From positions 11,372 to 75,371 of the forward strand of contig CALHLT010000022.1 in assembly GCA_938034555.1 (NCBI GenBank): a stretch of 64,000 bases of DNA, in the 5' to 3' direction. The stretch is from an uncultured Bacillota bacterium. Its GTDB lineage: Bacteria; Bacillota; Clostridia; Christensenellales; UBA1242. Both the position numbers and the translations under genes were made by a program. Below, piece after piece: positions 56,690 through 62,967 of this stretch. The notes below the pieces were generated by a model, which worked only from the letters and a program-made list of their open reading frames with translations, searched no databases and was not told where the DNA came from. Position 1 is the first letter of the stretch; each line of letters opens with the position of its first letter.

Positions 56690-59350
56690 ATGAAAAACAA
56701 AAAAATTGTTGTGTTCTTGCTTTCATTTCTTGCTTGCATTTGCGTTGGCGTTTTTTGCGTGTCTTGCGGAAAACCAACAGTTAAAGAAATAAGCATTAAT
56801 GCAGATTCTGTTCAAACAGAAATTTTGTATAACAGCGAATTTAACTATGACGACATTGAAGTAATTGCAAAACTTTCGGACGGAACAGAGCAAGTTCTTA
56901 GCCATGAGGAATGCGAATTTTCGAAAATTGACACAACTGTTTTAGGAAAACAAACTTTAACAGTAACCTATGGTCTTTACGAAGCAAAAATTGAAATAAC
57001 CGTTTATGAAAAACTCGAAAGAATTAGTGTTCAATATGTTAATCCTGCCGATGCAACAACAGGTTATGTTCTTCAAGGCGAAACTCTTGACCTTTCAAAG
57101 TTCAAAGTTGTTGCTTTCTATAGCAAAAACCAAGTTACATTAAAAAATTCCGAAGTAACTTTCAGCACTATTGACACCTCAACACTTGGCGAAAAAACTT
57201 TGGAAGTTTCCTATAACGGAAAATCAACTTCTGTTAAAGTTCATGTTATTGAATCTTGGGCAGATGTTATCGGCTTGGAAATTGAATCAATTTCAATTGT
57301 TCCTTCTTCCGTTGCAACTTCTGTCTATCAAAACGAAACTTATAATGTTTCAAACTTGCAAATTGTTGTTACATACAAAAACGGCTTAACAGCAACTCTT
57401 AACTATTCCGACCATTTGGAAGGGGAGGACAAAATTTCCGTTTCAACAATTGACACAACAAAAGTTGGAAAACAAAACTTAGTTGCAACATTTAAAGAGT
57501 TTTCTTCGCCTGCAATTGAGGTTGAAGTTAAAAAAACATACACAGTTATGGGATTTAGCGACCCAGCATTCGTAACGCTTTATAACGCAAATAAAGCTAA
57601 CGCAAATGAGTTTAACAAAACTGGTTCAACAGGCAAAAAAGGTTTTAGCGTTACAAACAACGAATATCTTGTTGGCGACGACAATGCGTTCATTTTCTCG
57701 CCAATTATGCAAGTTAGAACAAAAGACGGCGAATACAAAAATTTTGCTGAATATAAGGCAATTATTTCAGTTTATCTTTGCACAAACGAGATAACAGGAA
57801 CCTATGAACTTTTGGAAGGTGAAAACCTTGCAAGTTATGTTGAAGTTGACGAAATTAAACACACCTTTAAATTCACAGAAAAAGGTCTTACAAAACGCTT
57901 TAAAATAACTATTCTTCCATATGGTTTAACATCTTCGGAAGCTGCTGAAATTGAAGCAAAGTCCTTTGAATTTAGAGTTGTTGACGGCTGGAACGCATAT
58001 TCAGCAAAGGACATCTCTCTTATTGATAACGCAAACGTTAACAATAAATGGGGCGAACTTAAATCGGCAGAAGAAATTGAAATAAGCAAAAATATTAAAA
58101 GAATTATTCTTCACACTAACATAACAATTTCCGATAGTGATATTCCTTCTGTCCATTTCTTAACAAATCCAAGCGACATTCCTGCCGAGGCTGGTTCAGA
58201 AGATTATAACAGAGCATTTGGCTCGCTTATTGACTCAACAAAAGATGGAATTGGATATATCTATCAAAGAAATCTTAAAAACGGCGAAGAATTTACAATT
58301 GAAGGCAACTATTTCACTCTTTCCGCTCAAAATCTTAGTTTAATTGTAACTCAAGAGGTTGATGGAGTTTTAAAGATTTTTAAAAAGGATGAAGCATTAA
58401 CTGTCCACACAACACTTTTTGCTTTCTGTGGCGACAGATCAAACCCAGAGGGCGAGAGTGCAAATTGTAATTTGAACAACATTTCTCTTTATGGAAACAC
58501 AAAAAAATCTGAAGATGCAACACTTTCAGGCGGAGTTATGTTTGTTAAATCTTGGGGACTTAATTTCACAGCATATAACAACCTTTCACAATGCTGGTTC
58601 ATTAGTTATATGTTTGAAGGATCTTCCGAATATGACGACAAAATGGTAAACACATTTAACCATGTTAACGCATTCGATGCATATAACACACTTCTTTATG
58701 TTTGGGGCACAAGAGATGTAAGAATCCAAAACTCAACATTTATTGGCGCTGGCGGCCCAGTTATGATTTGCGACCACGTTAGCAACAATCAAACAACAGG
58801 CGAAGGCGGATATATAACAAATGTTAAAACAACAAATTCAATTCTTGAATCTTATGTTGCAGGAACAGAAGGTTGGTTCAACACCTATCAAGGTTCTGGG
58901 GCAATAGTTCAAGGGATTAAAGCAATGAACGCGCTTGTAACTCCTTATGGAAACACACTTTGCGATAAATCTGGTCAAAAAATCAACCTTATTGCAGTTT
59001 ATAAATCTGGTTCGCAAGAAGGCTTAACACAAAGCAAAATCCGCGGATCATTTACCGATACAGATGAAAAATATACAAATGGTTTAGACCTTTCAAATAG
59101 TGGAATTGAAGCAACTAAAAATCAAATTATTGCTCAACTTGCAGCATCTGGTAAGAGTCCAGAGCAAATTGCTAAAACTTTGGAACAAATGGCAATTTTG
59201 CAAACATTCAATGGTGCAGTTGGTGTTCCAGGAACAGACGGTTGGCTTAGCGCTCCAGATTCCGCAACTTTTGCAGCAGCAGAAGGCTATATGAATATAT
59301 ATTTATTCAACGGAATGGCTGCAGTTCTTGGACTTGAAAAAGTTGCATAA
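56690..59350 (+). CDS. large lipoprotein with three Ig-like repeats and a ~550-aa C-terminal domain
   Basis: Lipobox VSCG. Three repeats end in TVLGKQTLTVTYGLYEAKIEITV, STLGEKTLEVSYNGKSTSVKVHV and TKVGKQNLVATFKEFSSPAIEVEV. SD AAGGAG is present. Confidence 0.7.
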   Translation: MKNKKIVVFLLSFLACICVGVFCVSCGKPTVKEISINADSVQTEILYNSEFNYDDIEVIAKLSDGTEQVLSHEECEFSKIDTTVLGKQTLTVTYGLYEAKIEITVYEKLERISVQYVNPADATTGYVLQGETLDLSKFKVVAFYSKNQVTLKNSEVTFSTIDTSTLGEKTLEVSYNGKSTSVKVHVIESWADVIGLEIESISIVPSSVATSVYQNETYNVSNLQIVVTYKNGLTATLNYSDHLEGEDKISVSTIDTTKVGKQNLVATFKEFSSPAIEVEVKKTYTVMGFSDPAFVTLYNANKANANEFNKTGSTGKKGFSVTNNEYLVGDDNAFIFSPIMQVRTKDGEYKNFAEYKAIISVYLCTNEITGTYELLEGENLASYVEVDEIKHTFKFTEKGLTKRFKITILPYGLTSSEAAEIEAKSFEFRVVDGWNAYSAKDISLIDNANVNNKWGELKSAEEIEISKNIKRIILHTNITISDSDIPSVHFLTNPSDIPAEAGSEDYNRAFGSLIDSTKDGIGYIYQRNLKNGEEFTIEGNYFTLSAQNLSLIVTQEVDGVLKIFKKDEALTVHTTLFAFCGDRSNPEGESANCNLNNISLYGNTKKSEDATLSGGVMFVKSWGLNFTAYNNLSQCWFISYMFEGSSEYDDKMVNTFNHVNAFDAYNTLLYVWGTRDVRIQNSTFIGAGGPVMICDHVSNNQTTGEGGYITNVKTTNSILESYVAGTEGWFNTYQGSGAIVQGIKAMNALVTPYGNTLCDKSGQKINLIAVYKSGSQEGLTQSKIRGSFTDTDEKYTNGLDLSNSGIEATKNQIIAQLAASGKSPEQIAKTLEQMAILQTFNGAVGVPGTDGWLSAPDSATFAAAEGYMNIYLFNGMAAVLGLEKVA

Positions 59351-59498: not shown

Positions 59499-60194
59499 AT
59501 GAAAAAACTAATTAAAAAAGGAATCGTTTTTGCTCTTGCATTATTTATTCTTGCGCCTGTTTCAATTTTGTTTGCTGCTTGCGGCGAAACAATTTCAAAA
59601 GTTTCAACCTTCGACGAACTTGTTCAAGCGCTTGGCGGAACAAGCGATATTGTTCAACTTACAAATGACATTGATGTCACAAGCGAAATTTTTGTTAATC
59701 GAAAAGTAACACTCGATTTAAACGGAAAAACTCTTTCAAATTCAAAAGATCTCTGGAACCTTAAAACAAATCAATTTTCGCTTATAGGTTCGGGAAAAAA
59801 CGGCGATTTAACAATAACTGGAAACGGAAGAATTGTTGCAAAAAAAGACGACTGCTATGGCGTTGACGCTCGCGATGGGGGAAAACTTGTTATTGAAAAC
59901 ACGGAAATTATTGGAAACGTAACTGCGGTCTATTCCTATGAAGGCGATGTTGAAATTCGAAGCGGAACATTCTCAATCGAGCAACTTAGCGAGAATTTTG
60001 GGCATAAACTTTTAATCAATTTATACGACCAAAACCGCGACGCCGGCAAAACGACCTTAAAGGTTTATGGCGGAACTTATGTTGGATTCGACCCAGCAAA
60101 CCCAATGGAAAACGGCTATAAACTTCTTCCAGAAGGTTACACTTCAACATTAGTTGACGAAGCAACAAACACTTATAAAGTTACAATGTCTTAA
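59499..60194 (+). CDS. lipoprotein, possibly beta-helix fold
   Basis: Lipobox FAAC and repetitive G/N-rich strands (ITGNGRIVAKKDDCYGVDARDGGKLVIENTEIIGNVTAVYSYEGDVEIRSG). Confidence 0.6.
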   Translation: MKKLIKKGIVFALALFILAPVSILFAACGETISKVSTFDELVQALGGTSDIVQLTNDIDVTSEIFVNRKVTLDLNGKTLSNSKDLWNLKTNQFSLIGSGKNGDLTITGNGRIVAKKDDCYGVDARDGGKLVIENTEIIGNVTAVYSYEGDVEIRSGTFSIEQLSENFGHKLLINLYDQNRDAGKTTLKVYGGTYVGFDPANPMENGYKLLPEGYTSTLVDEATNTYKVTMS

Positions 60195-60208
60195 AAATTA
60201 AAAAATTG

Positions 60209-60237
60209 CACATTTCAAATCGAAATGTGTTTTTTTT
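60209..60237 (+). terminator. intrinsic terminator of the lipoprotein gene
   Basis: CACATTTC / GAAATGTG stem followed by a T8 run. Confidence 0.8.
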
Positions 60238-60247
60238 AAAAAAAGTG

Positions 60248-60276
60248 TTGACAAATGATTTTTTTTGGCATATATT
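60248..60276 (+). promoter_or_regulatory. promoter of the asnA leader transcript
   Basis: TTGACA (60248-60253), 17 nt, TATATT (60271-60276). Confidence 0.65.
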
Positions 60277-60303
60277 AATTTTAGACAAACAAAAGGAGAA
60301 ACT

Positions 60304-60387
60304 ATGTTTCAATTATTAATCAATAACAATAATAATTCAAACAGCGCACAAAATTGTGGGTTTCTTTTTGTTGTTGATTTAATTTAA
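60304..60387 (+). CDS. 27-codon Asn-rich leader peptide (MFQLLINNNNNSNSAQNCGFLFVVDLI)
   Basis: AGGAG (60294-60298) lies 5 nt before the ATG. Seven of the 27 codons are Asn, including five in a row (60322-60336). It lies between the promoter and an intrinsic terminator upstream of asnA. Confidence 0.5.
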   Translation: MFQLLINNNNNSNSAQNCGFLFVVDLI

Positions 60388-60415
60388 AAAAACAAATTAA
60401 ATAATTAGATAAATT

Positions 60416-60449
60416 AACACCTTTGGAACCCCCCGAAAGGTGTTTTTTT
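60416..60449 (+). terminator. intrinsic terminator (attenuator) in the asnA leader
   Basis: AACACCTTT(GG) / (CC)gAAAGGTGTT stem with a C-rich loop, followed by a T-run. Confidence 0.75.
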
Positions 60450-60475
60450 AATTTCAAAAAAAGGAGTAATGCAAA

Positions 60476-60538
60476 ATGAAAAAACAAGCAAATGCCGTAG
60501 CGGGCGATGGAAATAATATTTTGCATTTAAGGATTTAA
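60476..60538 (+). CDS. second mini-ORF (MKKQANAVAGDGNNILHLRI)
   Basis: AGGAG (60462-60466) lies 9 nt before the ATG. The ORF has an Asn-Asn pair at 60512-60517, and its 3' end lies inside the 5' arm of the following hairpin. Confidence 0.3.
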   Translation: MKKQANAVAGDGNNILHLRI

Positions 60539-60565
60539 TTAAAAAATAAATTTGTCCTTAAATGC
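60523..60565 (+). promoter_or_regulatory. 11-bp hairpin whose 5' arm mimics the asnA RBS region
   Basis: GCATTTAAGGA (60523-60533) pairs with TCCTTAAATGC (60555-60565). The 3' arm is also complementary to ATTTAAGGA (60612-60620), which overlaps the asnA SD. Confidence 0.5.
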
Positions 60566-60628
60566 GTTAAAAAATAATTAAAAAATATAAAAAACAAAAA
60601 TAAAAAAACAAATTTAAGGAGAAATTTT

Positions 60629-61624
60629 ATGAAATTTATTAAAGAAAAATATGCTTATTTAAGCATGGCAGACAAACAAAAATATATTAAAATAATTAAA
60701 GACAAATTTGAAAGAGAACTTGCAAAACAACTTGATTTAATTCGTGTTTCGGCTCCACTTCTTGTAACGCAAGAATCTGGGCTTCAAGACGATTTAAGCG
60801 GCGTTGAAAGAAAAGTTTCGTTCGACATTTTGAAAGACGGAAAAGAACTTGAAATTGTTCAATCGCTTGCAAAATGGAAGCGCTATGCGCTTAAAAAATA
60901 TGGAATTCCAACCCACAAAGGAATCTACACCGATATGACAGCAATTCGTCGCGACGAAAAACTTGACGAAATCCATTCTGTTTATGTTGACCAGTGGGAT
61001 TGGGAAAAAGTTATTGAGCGCGAAGATCGAACTGTTCAATATCTTAAACAAACTGTTAAAAAAATTGTTAAAGCAATTATTGCAACAGAAAAATATCTTA
61101 AAAAAGACGGGCTTGAACTTGCGCATCTTTCCGATAAGGTGTATTTCATAACAAGCCAAAAACTTTTGGATTTATATCCAACTTTAACACCAAAGCAACG
61201 CGAATATGAAATTGTTAAGAAATATAAAACAGTTTTCATAATGCAAATTGGCGACGATTTATCCGATGGTTTCCCACACGACCTTCGCGCGCCAGATTAT
61301 GACGATTGGAAATTAGACGGCGATTTAATGTTCTATCATGAAGTTTTGGATATGGCGCTTGAAATTTCAAGCATGGGAATTCGCGTTGATAAAGAAAGTT
61401 TGCTTTCCCAACTTAAAAAATCGAAAAAAGAAGAAAGACTTGCGCTTGACTATCATAAATCAATCCTCGACGAATCCCTTCCTTTAACAATTGGGGGAGG
61501 GATTGGACAAAGTCGACTTTGCCAACTTCTTCTTAGAAGAGCGCATATTGGCGAAGTTCAAGCGTCCTATTGGGACAAAGAAACCCTTGAAGATTGCAAA
61601 AAGAAAGAAATTGAATTGCTTTAA
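60629..61624 (+). CDS. asnA: aspartate--ammonia ligase (asparagine synthetase A)
   Basis: 331 aa, AsnA-type class II-like fold (...LIRVSAPLLV..., DWEKVI, GGGIGQSRL). AAGGAG lies 7 nt before the ATG. Confidence 0.9.
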   Translation: MKFIKEKYAYLSMADKQKYIKIIKDKFERELAKQLDLIRVSAPLLVTQESGLQDDLSGVERKVSFDILKDGKELEIVQSLAKWKRYALKKYGIPTHKGIYTDMTAIRRDEKLDEIHSVYVDQWDWEKVIEREDRTVQYLKQTVKKIVKAIIATEKYLKKDGLELAHLSDKVYFITSQKLLDLYPTLTPKQREYEIVKKYKTVFIMQIGDDLSDGFPHDLRAPDYDDWKLDGDLMFYHEVLDMALEISSMGIRVDKESLLSQLKKSKKEERLALDYHKSILDESLPLTIGGGIGQSRLCQLLLRRAHIGEVQASYWDKETLEDCKKKEIELL

Positions 61625-61634
61625 TTAAAAGTGT

Positions 61635-61663
61635 TTGACAAATTGATTCAAATTTAGTAATAT
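61635..61663 (+). promoter_or_regulatory. promoter of the metK leader
   Basis: TTGACA, 17 nt, TAATAT. Confidence 0.65.
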
Positions 61664-61667
61664 AAAA

Positions 61668-61797
61668 ACATCCATAAAGAGTGTGCGAGGGACAGCCCCG
61701 TTGACCACACAGCAACCTGCAAATTGCAAGGTGCTAATGGCTGACCGATGGGGAAAAATCAATATCAAAAATCCTGTCGGAAACGATGGGATTTTTT
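61668..61797 (+). promoter_or_regulatory. SAM-I (S-box) riboswitch with a terminator expression platform
   Basis: Conserved S-box elements are present: AAGAG, GAGGGA, AGCCCCGTTGA, GCAACC, and GGTGCTAA. The terminator at 61767-61797 is AAAAATCCTGTC / GATGGGATTTTT. The 3' P1 strand GATGGGG can alternatively pair with TCCTGTC. Confidence 0.85.
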
Positions 61798-61839: not shown

Positions 61840-62967
61840 ATGAAAAAAACAAAAGAAAAAGATGCTTCAAAAGAAGCAAAACATATGCGCCAAATTATAA
61901 CAAGCGAAAGCGTTAACATTGGTCATCCCGACAAAACTTGCGACTATATTGCCGATTCTTTCCTTGACGCGGCTCTTTCTCAAGACCCAAATTCGCAAAT
62001 GGCAGTTGAATGCGCAATTAAAGATAACAAATTGTTTATTTATGGAGAAGCAACAACAAAAGCAAAAATTAACTACAATTCAATTGCAAAATCAATTCTT
62101 AAGGAAGTTGGATATAAAAATAAATTCAAAATAATTAAGGAAATAAGCGAGCAAAGTCCAGACATAAATCAAGCAGTTGTTCGCGAAGAACTATGCGCAA
62201 ACGACCAAGGCATTGTTTATGGATATGCAACAAATGAAACAAAAGAATTTATGCCTTTGCCAATTTTAGTTGCTCATAAAATTATGAAAAAATATGAGGA
62301 ATTTCGAAAAAAGCGAAGTGATTTTTTCGCCGACGCAAAAAGCCAAGTTTCGGTTGAATATGAAGGGAACACGCCAAGAAAAATAACAACCGTTCTTGTT
62401 TCCGTTTCCCACGCCAAATCGCTTACATTAAACGAAATTCAAACCATAATTCAAGAAAATGTTTTAAACGAAGTTATGAAGGAATATAAAACCCTTGCAA
62501 AAAAGACGAATTACATTATTAATCCAAGCGGAAAGTTCACAATTTGGGGCGCGCAAGGTGATTCCGGATGTGTTGGGCGCAAAATTGTTGTTGACACCTA
62601 TGGCGGCGTTGGGCGCGTTGGAGGGGGATGTTTTTCAAGCAAAAACGCAACAAAAGTTGATCGTTCGGGCGCATATTATGCGCGTTATGTTGCAAAAAAC
62701 ATTGTTGCCCACGGCTTTGCAGACAAATGTGAAATTCAAGTTGCCTATGGAATTGGACTTTCAAAACCAATTGCAATTAACATTGAAACTTTTAACACAG
62801 AAAAAAAACCGCTTAAACAAATTTATAAGTATGTTGAAGAAAACTTCGATTTCAGCCTTTCAAATATAATTATCGAGCTTGATTTACTTAAACCAATTTA
62901 CAAGCAAACAGCCTGCTATGGACATTTTGGAAGGCAAGAATTCACATGGGAAAAAAATAAACCATAA
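61840..62967 (+). CDS. metK: S-adenosylmethionine synthetase
   Basis: TSESVNIGHPDK and the typical MetK core. The start may instead be ATG 61885, which would remove a 15-aa K/E-rich extension. Confidence 0.95.
   Translation: MKKTKEKDASKEAKHMRQIITSESVNIGHPDKTCDYIADSFLDAALSQDPNSQMAVECAIKDNKLFIYGEATTKAKINYNSIAKSILKEVGYKNKFKIIKEISEQSPDINQAVVREELCANDQGIVYGYATNETKEFMPLPILVAHKIMKKYEEFRKKRSDFFADAKSQVSVEYEGNTPRKITTVLVSVSHAKSLTLNEIQTIIQENVLNEVMKEYKTLAKKTNYIINPSGKFTIWGAQGDSGCVGRKIVVDTYGGVGRVGGGCFSSKNATKVDRSGAYYARYVAKNIVAHGFADKCEIQVAYGIGLSKPIAINIETFNTEKKPLKQIYKYVEENFDFSLSNIIIELDLLKPIYKQTACYGHFGRQEFTWEKNKP

Follow-up and report, generated by a model that had tools for sequence, protein, structure and literature searches.

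How is asnA, the gene of asparagine synthetase A, controlled in uncultured gut Clostridia, and does the small open reading frame (ORF) in front of it, rich in Asn codons, take part in this control? The question is raised by a 64-kb stretch of DNA of an uncultured Bacillota bacterium (contig CALHLT010000022.1; the whole analysed stretch of 64,000 nucleotides (nt) is referred to below as the window), in which a promoter is followed by such an ORF (ORF1), by an intrinsic terminator (T1) and by asnA. A preliminary description of the window had proposed that this leader acts as a ribosome-mediated asparagine attenuator. The anatomy of the leader, both in the window and in 38 genomes related to it, the covariation of its paired strands, the placement of its promoter and its linkage to asnA support that proposal, and we consider it likely, from these comparisons of sequences, that the leader is a ribosome-mediated, Asn-responsive transcription attenuator of asnA with a four-region design. 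This attenuator is probably followed by a second, translational stage of control, formed by another mini-ORF (ORF2) and the ribosome binding site of asnA.

The asparagine-codon-rich leader of asnA

The elements of the leader and the gene that it precedes are as follows (coordinates of the window, strand, description and, in brackets, basis).

about 60208-60237, +, intrinsic terminator of the upstream lipoprotein gene (terminator scan, sequence)
60248-60276, +, sigma-70-type promoter TTGACA-17-TATATT, for the leader and asnA (11 of 12 positions match)
60294-60298, +, Shine-Dalgarno sequence AGGAG of ORF1, 5 nt 5' of the ATG (sequence)
60304-60387, +, leader ORF1, MFQLLINNNNNSNSAQNCGFLFVVDLI, 27 codons, seven of them Asn (ORF list, relatives)
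60322-60336, +, run of five Asn codons, AAT AAC AAT AAT AAT, the proposed stall site (sequence)
60340-60342 and 60352-60354, +, further Asn codons of ORF1 (sequence)
60343-60350, +, region 1, the 5' strand of the 1:2 hairpin, with its partner at 60355-60362 (folding, RNAalifold)
60355-60381, +, region 2, the 5' strand of the antiterminator (duplex and alignment tests)
60358-60364, +, outer-helix strand of region 2, GGGUUUC (partner GGAACCC at 60425-60431)
60372-60381, +, inner-helix strand of region 2, UGUUGAUUUA (partner at 60410-60419)
60385-60387, +, stop codon of ORF1 (ORF list)
60410-60431, +, region 3, comprising the 5' flank, 5' arm and loop of the terminator, with region 2 or region 4 as partner (folding, covariation)
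60416-60449, +, intrinsic terminator T1, with its stem-loop at 60416-60444 and U run at 60443-60449 (folding, scan)
60433-60444, +, region 4, the 3' arm of T1 (folding)
60629-61624, +, asnA, aspartate-ammonia ligase (asparagine synthetase A) (homologues with PF03590)

The lipoprotein-gene terminator, the promoter and the AGGAG sequence had all been pointed out in the preliminary description, and each of them is present in the sequence, as is the 27-codon ORF with seven Asn codons, five of which are consecutive. The upstream terminator sets the asnA leader apart as a transcription unit of its own. The assignment of the downstream gene to asnA also stands, as its homologues carry the Pfam domain PF03590 and are annotated as 'aspartate--ammonia ligase'. 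T1, which had been described as a strong terminator, begins 28 nt past the stop codon of ORF1 and consists of the hairpin AACACCUUUGG/AACCCC/CCgAAAGGUGUU, with a folding energy of -11.8 to -14.9 kcal/mol (z = -4.8). Within the window, five consecutive Asn codons are found in one place only, compared with 0.01 occurrences expected from dinucleotide shuffles. Overlooked at that time were an inner helix of the antiterminator, the 1:2 hairpin and, within the 180 nt between the terminator and asnA, ORF2 and an anti-Shine-Dalgarno element.

Conservation of the leader and its linkage to asnA

Related loci were collected with a clade-specific N-terminal fragment of AsnA as the query. This yielded 80 species-representative loci, of which approximately 55 belong to the clade of the window (uncultured gut Clostridia, AsnA 66-99% identical) and 25 constitute an outgroup (AsnA identity not exceeding 60%). 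The labels of the clade include UMGS687 (the species of the window), 'Christensenella sp. UBA1242', Ca. Caccopulliclostridium and Ca. Onthoplasma. An ORF1 with a Shine-Dalgarno sequence, an ATG and 3-9 consecutive Asn codons is located 5' of asnA in 38 other clade loci (e.g. MFRLINNNNNNNLNAYNMGFIFVVEKI), from genomes whose AsnA proteins are 68-99% identical; the mini-ORF with an Asn run and a terminator, which the preliminary description had suggested seeking upstream of related asnA genes, is conserved in all of them. A full-length AsnA query, which is dominated by universal AsnA motifs, revealed the mini-ORF in 2 of the 3 closest loci among the matches listed. None of the 25 outgroup asnA loci contains an Asn-run leader ORF; two apparent matches in this group fall inside long ORFs.

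The leaders of the relatives contain 3-10 Asn codons each, and the exchange of AAU and AAC is the sole variation within the run, while the flanking codons vary. Virtually every relative has a Shine-Dalgarno-like site 5' of ORF1, and in the 39 leaders examined the start codon and the Shine-Dalgarno sequence are in frame with the Asn run. In at least eight relatives (L219, L229, L244, L249, L251, L252, L239/240 and L222) ORF1 ends just 5' of a G-rich element that contains GGGUUUC, and in L254 the nucleotides encoding the 'GFIFVV' tail of the peptide are read in another frame. GGGUUUC is retained even in leaders whose ORF1 stops just short of it. Because of these early stop codons and the frame change, the 'GFIFVV' tail is to be regarded as conserved at the level of RNA and not of peptide.

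L222 carries a reduced leader, with an ORF1 (MKRLINNANEILL) of only three Asn codons, a terminator located 22 nt from asnA, and no ORF2.

A promoter matching at least 10 of 12 consensus positions is located approximately 50 nt upstream of ORF1 in 36 of the 39 leaders. A site of this quality occurs between the terminator and asnA in 2 of 39 leaders, though that stretch is two- to three-fold longer. The conserved sequence of region 2, GGGTTTC(N)TTTTTGTTGTTG, was also sought in 185,579 species genomes, which gave 72 matches. In all of the matches preceded by at least four consecutive Asn codons, asnA follows at a distance of 260-470 nt, unless the retrieved stretch ends before this point. Apart from these, a run was seen in a single match (L301, 3 codons), which arose by chance within a membrane-protein ORF, and the remaining ones are chance matches in unrelated taxa. 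The scan of these genomes revealed no region-2 sequence with an Asn run upstream of other genes, i.e. no regulon beyond asnA, and the leader element is linked exclusively to this gene.

The terminator, the antiterminator and the 1:2 hairpin

The terminator was found automatically in 35 of 38 leaders; three further first hairpins were placed by hand and L222 was added later. It forms part of the RNAalifold consensus structure, in which all 10 stem pairs vary and 8 of them stay paired through changes on both sides. The loop of this hairpin is conserved (GAAAYYC; GGAACCC in the window), which is unusual for a terminator, and is conserved because the outer helix of the antiterminator makes use of it.

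The 5' strand of this outer helix is the G-rich element that follows the Asn run (UGGGUUUCA), which forms 7-10 contiguous pairs with the terminator loop and the adjoining top of the stem in 35 of the 39 leaders. GGGUUUC, or its variant, is almost the sole 7-mer of the leader that is able to pair with the apical loop. Compensatory variants of the helix include GGGUUCC:GGAAUCC (L209), GGAUUAU:GUAAUCC (L222) and a 6-bp form, GGGUUA:UAACUC (L218), and in the divergent loci L239 and L240 a wholly different pair, UAGUGGUC:GGUCACUA, occupies the same positions. The complementarity of GGGTTTC (60358-60364) to GGAACCC (60425-60431), noticed in the preliminary description, is thus conserved and covarying. 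As an antiterminator, however, it had been described incompletely, since it provides the outer helix alone. The inner helix is formed by the 3' portion of the upstream element (UGUUGA in most leaders) and UCAACA, located at the 5' flank and base of the terminator, and is represented in L222 by the compensated pair CGUCGUU:AACGGC. Between them, the two helices engage all of the terminator's 5' arm and its loop.

In the window, the antiterminator folded as a hairpin (60358-60364 with 60425-60431, and 60372-60381 with 60410-60419) has an energy of -16.1 kcal/mol and is at least as stable as the terminator, a comparison that had earlier been recommended as a check. The mean energy of the region 2:region 3 duplex is -14.9 kcal/mol, compared with -6.8 kcal/mol for dinucleotide shuffles (p<0.05 in 36 of 39 leaders), and the succession of outer helix, internal loop and inner helix is kept among the leaders. 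On a structure-blind MAFFT alignment, 87.8% of the cells of the antiterminator pair, compared with 35-53% when the partner strand is slid. Seven pairs have changed on both sides, and the covariation score was reached by none of 500 shuffles.

The RNAalifold consensus also contains a hairpin formed by ACGCAU, located just after the Asn run, and the 5' half of the G-rich element (AUGGGU); exchanges of UA for CG occur in it, and 7 sequences have changed on both sides at one of its pairs. In the window this 1:2 hairpin (60343-60350 with 60355-60362, -6.7 kcal/mol) ties up part of GGGUUUC, and its 5' strand starts 7 nt past the Asn run.

The window has one terminator. Many relatives (e.g. L205, L207, L208, L209, L213, L223, L225, L241, L244 and L245) possess a second one between the first terminator and ORF2, the 5' arm of which resembles that of the first. 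Of 15 such pairs of terminators, 12 show complementarity between the 3' arm of the first and the 5' arm of the second (-8 to -14 kcal/mol, z about -2 to -4). The first hairpin of L241 and L245 lacks a U tract, and their true terminator is the second one alone. This arrangement suggests a six-region relay, in which a single antitermination event would disarm both terminators of the two-terminator relatives.

Proposed mechanism of attenuation

From the anatomy of the leader we infer how ribosome stalling, the kinetics of folding and the response to asparagine may be connected. Transcription would begin at the promoter (60248-60276), and a ribosome would translate ORF1. When Asn-tRNA(Asn) is scarce, this ribosome is expected to stall on the Asn run (60322-60336), with its footprint over region 1 (60343-60350), which would leave region 2 free. 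Free region 2 (60358-60364 and 60372-60381) could then capture region 3 (60410-60431) as the latter leaves the polymerase, and the resulting two-helix antiterminator would block the terminator hairpin, so that the polymerase continues into asnA. When Asn is plentiful, the ribosome would reach the stop codon (60385-60387) and cover the inner-helix strand of region 2, or GGGUUUC in the relatives with a short ORF1. If the leader is not translated, region 1 would hold region 2. In both of these situations (a ribosome at the stop codon or no translation) regions 3 and 4 would form the terminator, and the transcript would end at about position 60449.

The positions of the ribosome in this scheme are deduced, because they are based on standard footprint sizes (approximately 15 nt on the 5' side of the A-site codon and 12 nt on its 3' side). 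With these sizes, a ribosome on the Asn run would cover region 1 and leave the G-rich element clear, and one at the stop codon would cover the inner-helix strand in the long-ORF forms, such as the window, and GGGUUUC in the short forms. The earlier suggestion that a ribosome reading on covers GGGTTTC therefore fits the short-ORF relatives but not the window, in which it is the inner-helix strand that would be covered. We also folded truncated transcripts with the ribosome represented as a mask, at equilibrium. The probability that the terminator 5' arm is paired with upstream sequences was 0.38 with no ribosome, 0.55 with a stalled ribosome and 0.33 with a ribosome at the stop codon, a shift in the direction that an attenuator would show, and stalling increased this pairing over the no-ribosome state in 35 of 38 leaders.

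The second mini-ORF and the ribosome binding site of asnA

The stretch between the terminator and asnA contains the following elements.

60463-60466, +, Shine-Dalgarno sequence GGAG of ORF2, 9 nt 5' of the ATG (sequence)
60476-60538, +, ORF2, MKKQANAVAGDGNNILHLRI, the second mini-ORF (ORF list, relatives)
60491-60493, +, first Asn codon of ORF2, with later Asn codons at 60512-60517 (sequence)
60494-60505, +, GC hairpin GCCGUAGCGGGC within ORF2 (alignment, RNAalifold)
60523-60533, +, element A, GCAUUUAAGGA, a mimic of the asnA Shine-Dalgarno sequence at the 3' end of ORF2, forming 11 bp with A' (covariation)
60555-60565, +, element A', UCCUUAAAUGC, an anti-Shine-Dalgarno sequence complementary to A and to the asnA Shine-Dalgarno region (covariation, folding)
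60612-60621, +, asnA Shine-Dalgarno region, AUUUAAGGAG, with 9 bp possible with A' (alignment, RNAalifold)

ORF2 is present in 35 other loci besides the window. Its product has the form M[KRE]Kx-N-A-V-A-G-[ED], followed by residues encoded by Asp and Asn codons, and in the relatives a strong Shine-Dalgarno sequence (AAGGAGG type) precedes it. A scan with the ORF2 motif AAYGCCGTAGCGGGCGA was swamped by chance matches in GC-rich genomes and recovered two true loci.

Element A' has two possible partners. Its pairing with A is observed in 88% of the cells of the alignment, with six pairs changed on both sides and a score reached by 0 of 500 shuffles. Its pairing with the asnA Shine-Dalgarno region, which occurs both in the RNAalifold consensus and in the minimum-energy fold of the window, is found in 89.9% of the cells, compared with 27-65% when the partner is slid. 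ORF2 extends through A and ends in the loop of the A:A' hairpin in most relatives. A loop element, B, which in most relatives includes the stop codon of ORF2, pairs with B', located 3' of A', with moderate covariation support. We also considered A:A' as a second terminator and rejected this, as no U tract follows it.

In read-through transcripts, A:A' (60523-60533 with 60555-60565) would form first and leave the asnA Shine-Dalgarno sequence free. A ribosome finishing ORF2 would unzip A:A', after which A' could take its more stable partner, the asnA Shine-Dalgarno region (60612-60621), and translation of asnA would be turned off. A ribosome stalled at the Asn codons of ORF2, just upstream of A, would leave A:A' intact and asnA translatable. 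We hold the direction of this stage, i.e. that completion of ORF2 turns asnA off, only tentatively and at slightly less than an even chance. It was deduced from the kinetic order of folding, because the equilibrium mask folding was uninformative for this stage: the mean unpaired probability of the asnA Shine-Dalgarno sequence was 0.37, 0.41, 0.36 and 0.39 in the four mask conditions (21 loci), values that describe equilibrium folding and not kinetics.

The GC hairpin GCCGUAGCGGGC, which encodes A-V-A-G, is almost invariant in the window and the 35 related loci, inside an otherwise AT-rich leader. It lies approximately 15 nt past the start codon of ORF2, directly after the first Asn codon. In divergent relatives a four-pair stem is kept while the peptide differs (GCUUUGGCAAGC, encoding ALAS; GCCCAGUCGGGC, encoding AQSG; and GCCUUAGCAGGC). 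The other changes are mostly synonymous and, although codon usage is AT-rich, the C at the third position of GCC and of GGC is almost never replaced. The hairpin thus seems to be constrained both as RNA and as peptide. A search of the nearby sequence for a complementary partner of the hairpin gave nothing beyond chance.

In view of this dual constraint (compensatory changes in the RNA and a conserved peptide), the ORF2 sequence AAY-GCCGUAGCGGGC-GA (N-A-V-A-G-E/D) could be a sensor of a new type. It might act, as nascent peptide or as mRNA, to arrest the ribosome when free asparagine or aspartate is sensed, or serve as an operator for an RNA-binding regulator, and in either case be coupled to the switch formed by the Shine-Dalgarno mimic, the anti-Shine-Dalgarno sequence and the pseudoknot-like B:B' pairing, which would make the leader a two-sensor device. 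Arrest of ribosomes in response to ligands is known from TnaC and SpeFL. We regard this possibility as speculative and rather unlikely; if true, one stage would read tRNA charging and the other a different signal.

In the minimum-energy folds of the window and of the sister genome L201, the start region of ORF2 (60468-60478, UAAUGCAAAAUG) is complementary to a sequence inside ORF2 (60517-60527, UAUUUUGCAUU). This pairing could hide the start of ORF2; it was not seen in the other subfamilies. Loci L249 and L250 have a long ORF2, very rich in Asn and Asp (e.g. MKKQTNAVAGDNDNDNNNDNNKNNTQNNII...), and no hairpin of a Shine-Dalgarno mimic with an anti-Shine-Dalgarno sequence.

Alternative explanations

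Could ORF1 be simply an independent gene of a small, Asn-rich hydrophobic peptide, with its own promoter and a constitutive terminator, and asnA be transcribed separately, without any sensing? A promoter, an ORF with a good Shine-Dalgarno sequence and a terminator do resemble a complete gene, and the peptide part MFR[LV]IN...GFIFVVE is conserved in the largest subfamily. However, a comparable promoter was hardly ever found between the terminator and asnA, while nearly all leaders have one upstream of ORF1. The 'GFIFVV' tail is kept as nucleotides, outside the reading frame of L254 and beyond the stop codon of the short ORFs; the terminator loop is conserved and covaries with the G-rich element, which would be needless for a plain terminator; and the leader unit was never found apart from asnA. 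We consider this explanation extremely improbable. Only a little more credible, and still very improbable, is a leader that is ribosome-mediated but senses translation capacity in general, in the manner of pyrBI, ermC or Rho-coupling devices, with the Asn codons being merely frequent AT-rich codons. AAU and AAC are indeed cheap codons, because the G+C content of the genome is 35%, and the 5' untranslated region (UTR) with the Shine-Dalgarno sequence can pair with region 2, so that translation of ORF1 alone would alter the fold. Against this stand a run of five or more Asn codons that is unique in the window and the maintenance of runs of 3-9 Asn codons in 38 relatives amid varying flanking codons. 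Moreover, the product of the regulated gene makes asparagine, the element was found there alone, and ORF2 is Asn-rich too.

The choice between the helices might also be made by a factor acting in trans (a ligand, protein or tRNA, as in riboswitches or T-boxes), with the Asn run playing mainly a structural part, as the pairing partner of the U/G-rich region 2. In favour of this, regions 2 and 3 show conservation as RNA, the (AAY)n run can pair with GUUGUUG of region 2 (as in the minimum-energy fold of L220), the almost invariant GC hairpin downstream could be a protein operator, and T-boxes are common in Firmicutes and precede the outgroup asnA of L277. A T-box had been named in the preliminary description as an element that would overturn the attenuator, and none was matched in the window, even weakly (E up to 10). 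The leader has no Rfam match, and known aptamers and T-boxes have more and longer conserved paired elements than it does. In the 39 leaders the run is in frame with a Shine-Dalgarno sequence and start codon and varies by AAU/AAC alone, and the placement of the stop codon relative to region 2 fits the geometry of an attenuator in both the long and the short forms. A trans-acting switch is therefore unlikely for the first stage, although we give it somewhat more room than the two explanations above; for the GC hairpin of ORF2 it is conceivable.

Several observations weigh against the asparagine attenuator and its second stage. The distribution of the leader is patchy: approximately 10 clade loci have no leader, and in these asnA directly follows another gene in some cases and has a plain promoter in others. 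Many of the sequences come from one closely related subfamily, so the locus counts overstate the number of independent events, and the independent compensatory changes amount to a handful. The complementarity of (AAY)n to (RUU)n, and of the A-rich UTR to the U-rich region 2, is of low complexity and may easily arise at 35% G+C. The effect of the ribosome masks is modest (from 0.38 to 0.55) and almost nil in the window (0.34 to 0.36), as pairing of the 5' UTR with region 2 is allowed in the model; owing to this small effect we gave the mask folding little weight. Concerning the second stage, equilibrium masking showed no consistent trend, the proposed scheme leaves the almost invariant GC hairpin of ORF2 without a role, and in L249 and L250 ORF2 overlaps the start of asnA instead, by 4 nt, a layout which suggests translational coupling as a different solution for this stage. 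Finally, all of the hosts are uncultured and known from metagenome-assembled genomes (MAGs), and the support is of a comparative kind.

Comparison with known systems

Leader-peptide attenuators are known for Trp, His, Leu, Thr, Phe and Ile/Val, with a few for Cys and Pro, mostly in Proteobacteria and Actinobacteria. The amino-acid genes of Firmicutes typically use T-boxes, and Asn T-box leaders precede asnA and asnS. The preliminary description had noted no known leader-peptide attenuator for Asn, and this agrees with our searches, which found none in the full-text literature or in Rfam 15. In the leader of the window there was no Rfam 15 match at the gathering score and no relevant one at E values up to 10; the weak matches to His_leader (16.7 bits, compared with a threshold of 49) and Phe_leader (16.5, compared with 55) are driven by the terminator.

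In its anatomy the asnA leader resembles trpL, hisL, leuL, thrL, pheL and ilvL of Proteobacteria: a short ORF with a Shine-Dalgarno sequence contains tandem codons for the end product, 1:2, 2:3 and 3:4 pairings are possible, the stall site lies just 5' of region 1, and a terminating ribosome would mask region 2. It differs from them in the amino acid and gene (Asn and asnA), in its hosts (uncultured Clostridia), in its lack of similarity to the leaders of Rfam, in the use of a conserved terminator loop by the outer helix of the antiterminator, and in the second terminator and second mini-ORF that are added in many and in nearly all of the relatives, respectively.

Leader peptides are not new in themselves in Firmicutes, since they have been reported in bacilli, Staphylococcus aureus and Listeria. 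The available parts of these reports describe His leader peptides upstream of a hisS paralogue/hisZ in bacilli (Naville and Gautheret 2010, PMC2965389). For S. aureus they describe an attenuator peptide, rich in leucine, for the synthesis of branched-chain amino acids (PMC5794164), and for Listeria a related study of how these amino acids are controlled (PMC5864092). As far as these parts extend, the His leader and the Leu/Ile-rich ilv-leu leader share the general architecture of the asnA leader, with ribosome-mediated attenuation existing alongside T-boxes, but concern other amino acids, genes and lineages, neither asparagine nor Clostridia, and contain no mention of a tandem mini-ORF with a Shine-Dalgarno mimic and an anti-Shine-Dalgarno sequence. 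The available part of the broad attenuator survey of Naville and Gautheret likewise makes no mention of asparagine or asnA (PMC2965389). New in the asnA leader are its amino acid, gene and lineage, the terminator loop as the antiterminator partner and the tandem second mini-ORF.

With Asn T-boxes the leader shares the gene, presumably the signal (charging of tRNA-Asn) and the terminator/antiterminator output. Unlike them, it has no specifier loop and no T-box sequence, and its proposed sensor is the translating ribosome and not direct binding of tRNA. Among 20 loci scanned for T-boxes (11 leaderless clade loci and 9 of the outgroup), one was positive: in L277, a Mycoplasmatota MAG, a T-box (positions 1660-1902, 109.5 bits) is located directly upstream of the outgroup asnA. 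Judged from these sequences, asnA is under a T-box in one lineage and a candidate leader peptide in another, with one kind of sensor in the place of the other before the same gene.

The second stage resembles the translational attenuation of ermC and cat, in which translation of a leader ORF that overlaps one strand picks between helices, one of which hides the downstream Shine-Dalgarno sequence, and, in having two short ORFs in series, the Salmonella mgtCBR leader with mgtM and mgtP (PMC3641672). It differs from ermC and cat in that the proposed signal is Asn codons and not an antibiotic-dependent arrest peptide, in the use of a three-element switch, and in that completed translation, not stalling, is proposed to turn the gene off.

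If the attenuator reading is true, asparagine specificity would be added to the narrow repertoire of leader-peptide attenuators, and, in this clade of uncultured gut Clostridia, leader-peptide sensing would take the position of the T-box that is typical of Firmicutes. With at least 39 members, a terminator and antiterminator supported by covariation, and a conserved loop, there is enough material for a new RNA family to be defined and for the corresponding 'hypothetical small ORFs' to be annotated correctly. The tandem arrangement of a transcriptional attenuator, often with a relayed second terminator, and an Asn-rich ORF2 over the asnA ribosome binding site would represent a compact multi-layer design that can be tested in a cell-free system, and in gut anaerobes the leader would naturally report on Asn limitation.

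Neighbouring genes

The region upstream of the leader contains two successive genes of the + strand whose products have lipoprotein-type signal peptides, and a riboswitch is located downstream of asnA.

56690-59350, +, gene of an 886-aa protein with repeated domains and a lipoprotein-type signal peptide (...LSFLACICVGVFCVSCGK)
59499-60194, +, upstream lipoprotein gene (...LFILAPVSILFAACGE) (ORF list)
61635-61663, promoter-like site near the riboswitch
61669-61754, +, SAM-I riboswitch (Rfam RF00162, 54.9 bits, compared with a gathering score of 44.4), shortly 3' of asnA
61840-62967, ORF downstream of the SAM-I riboswitch

By its N-terminal sequence, the last of these ORFs looks like metK. If this assignment is true, two neighbouring amino-acid-related genes would be under two different leader mechanisms.

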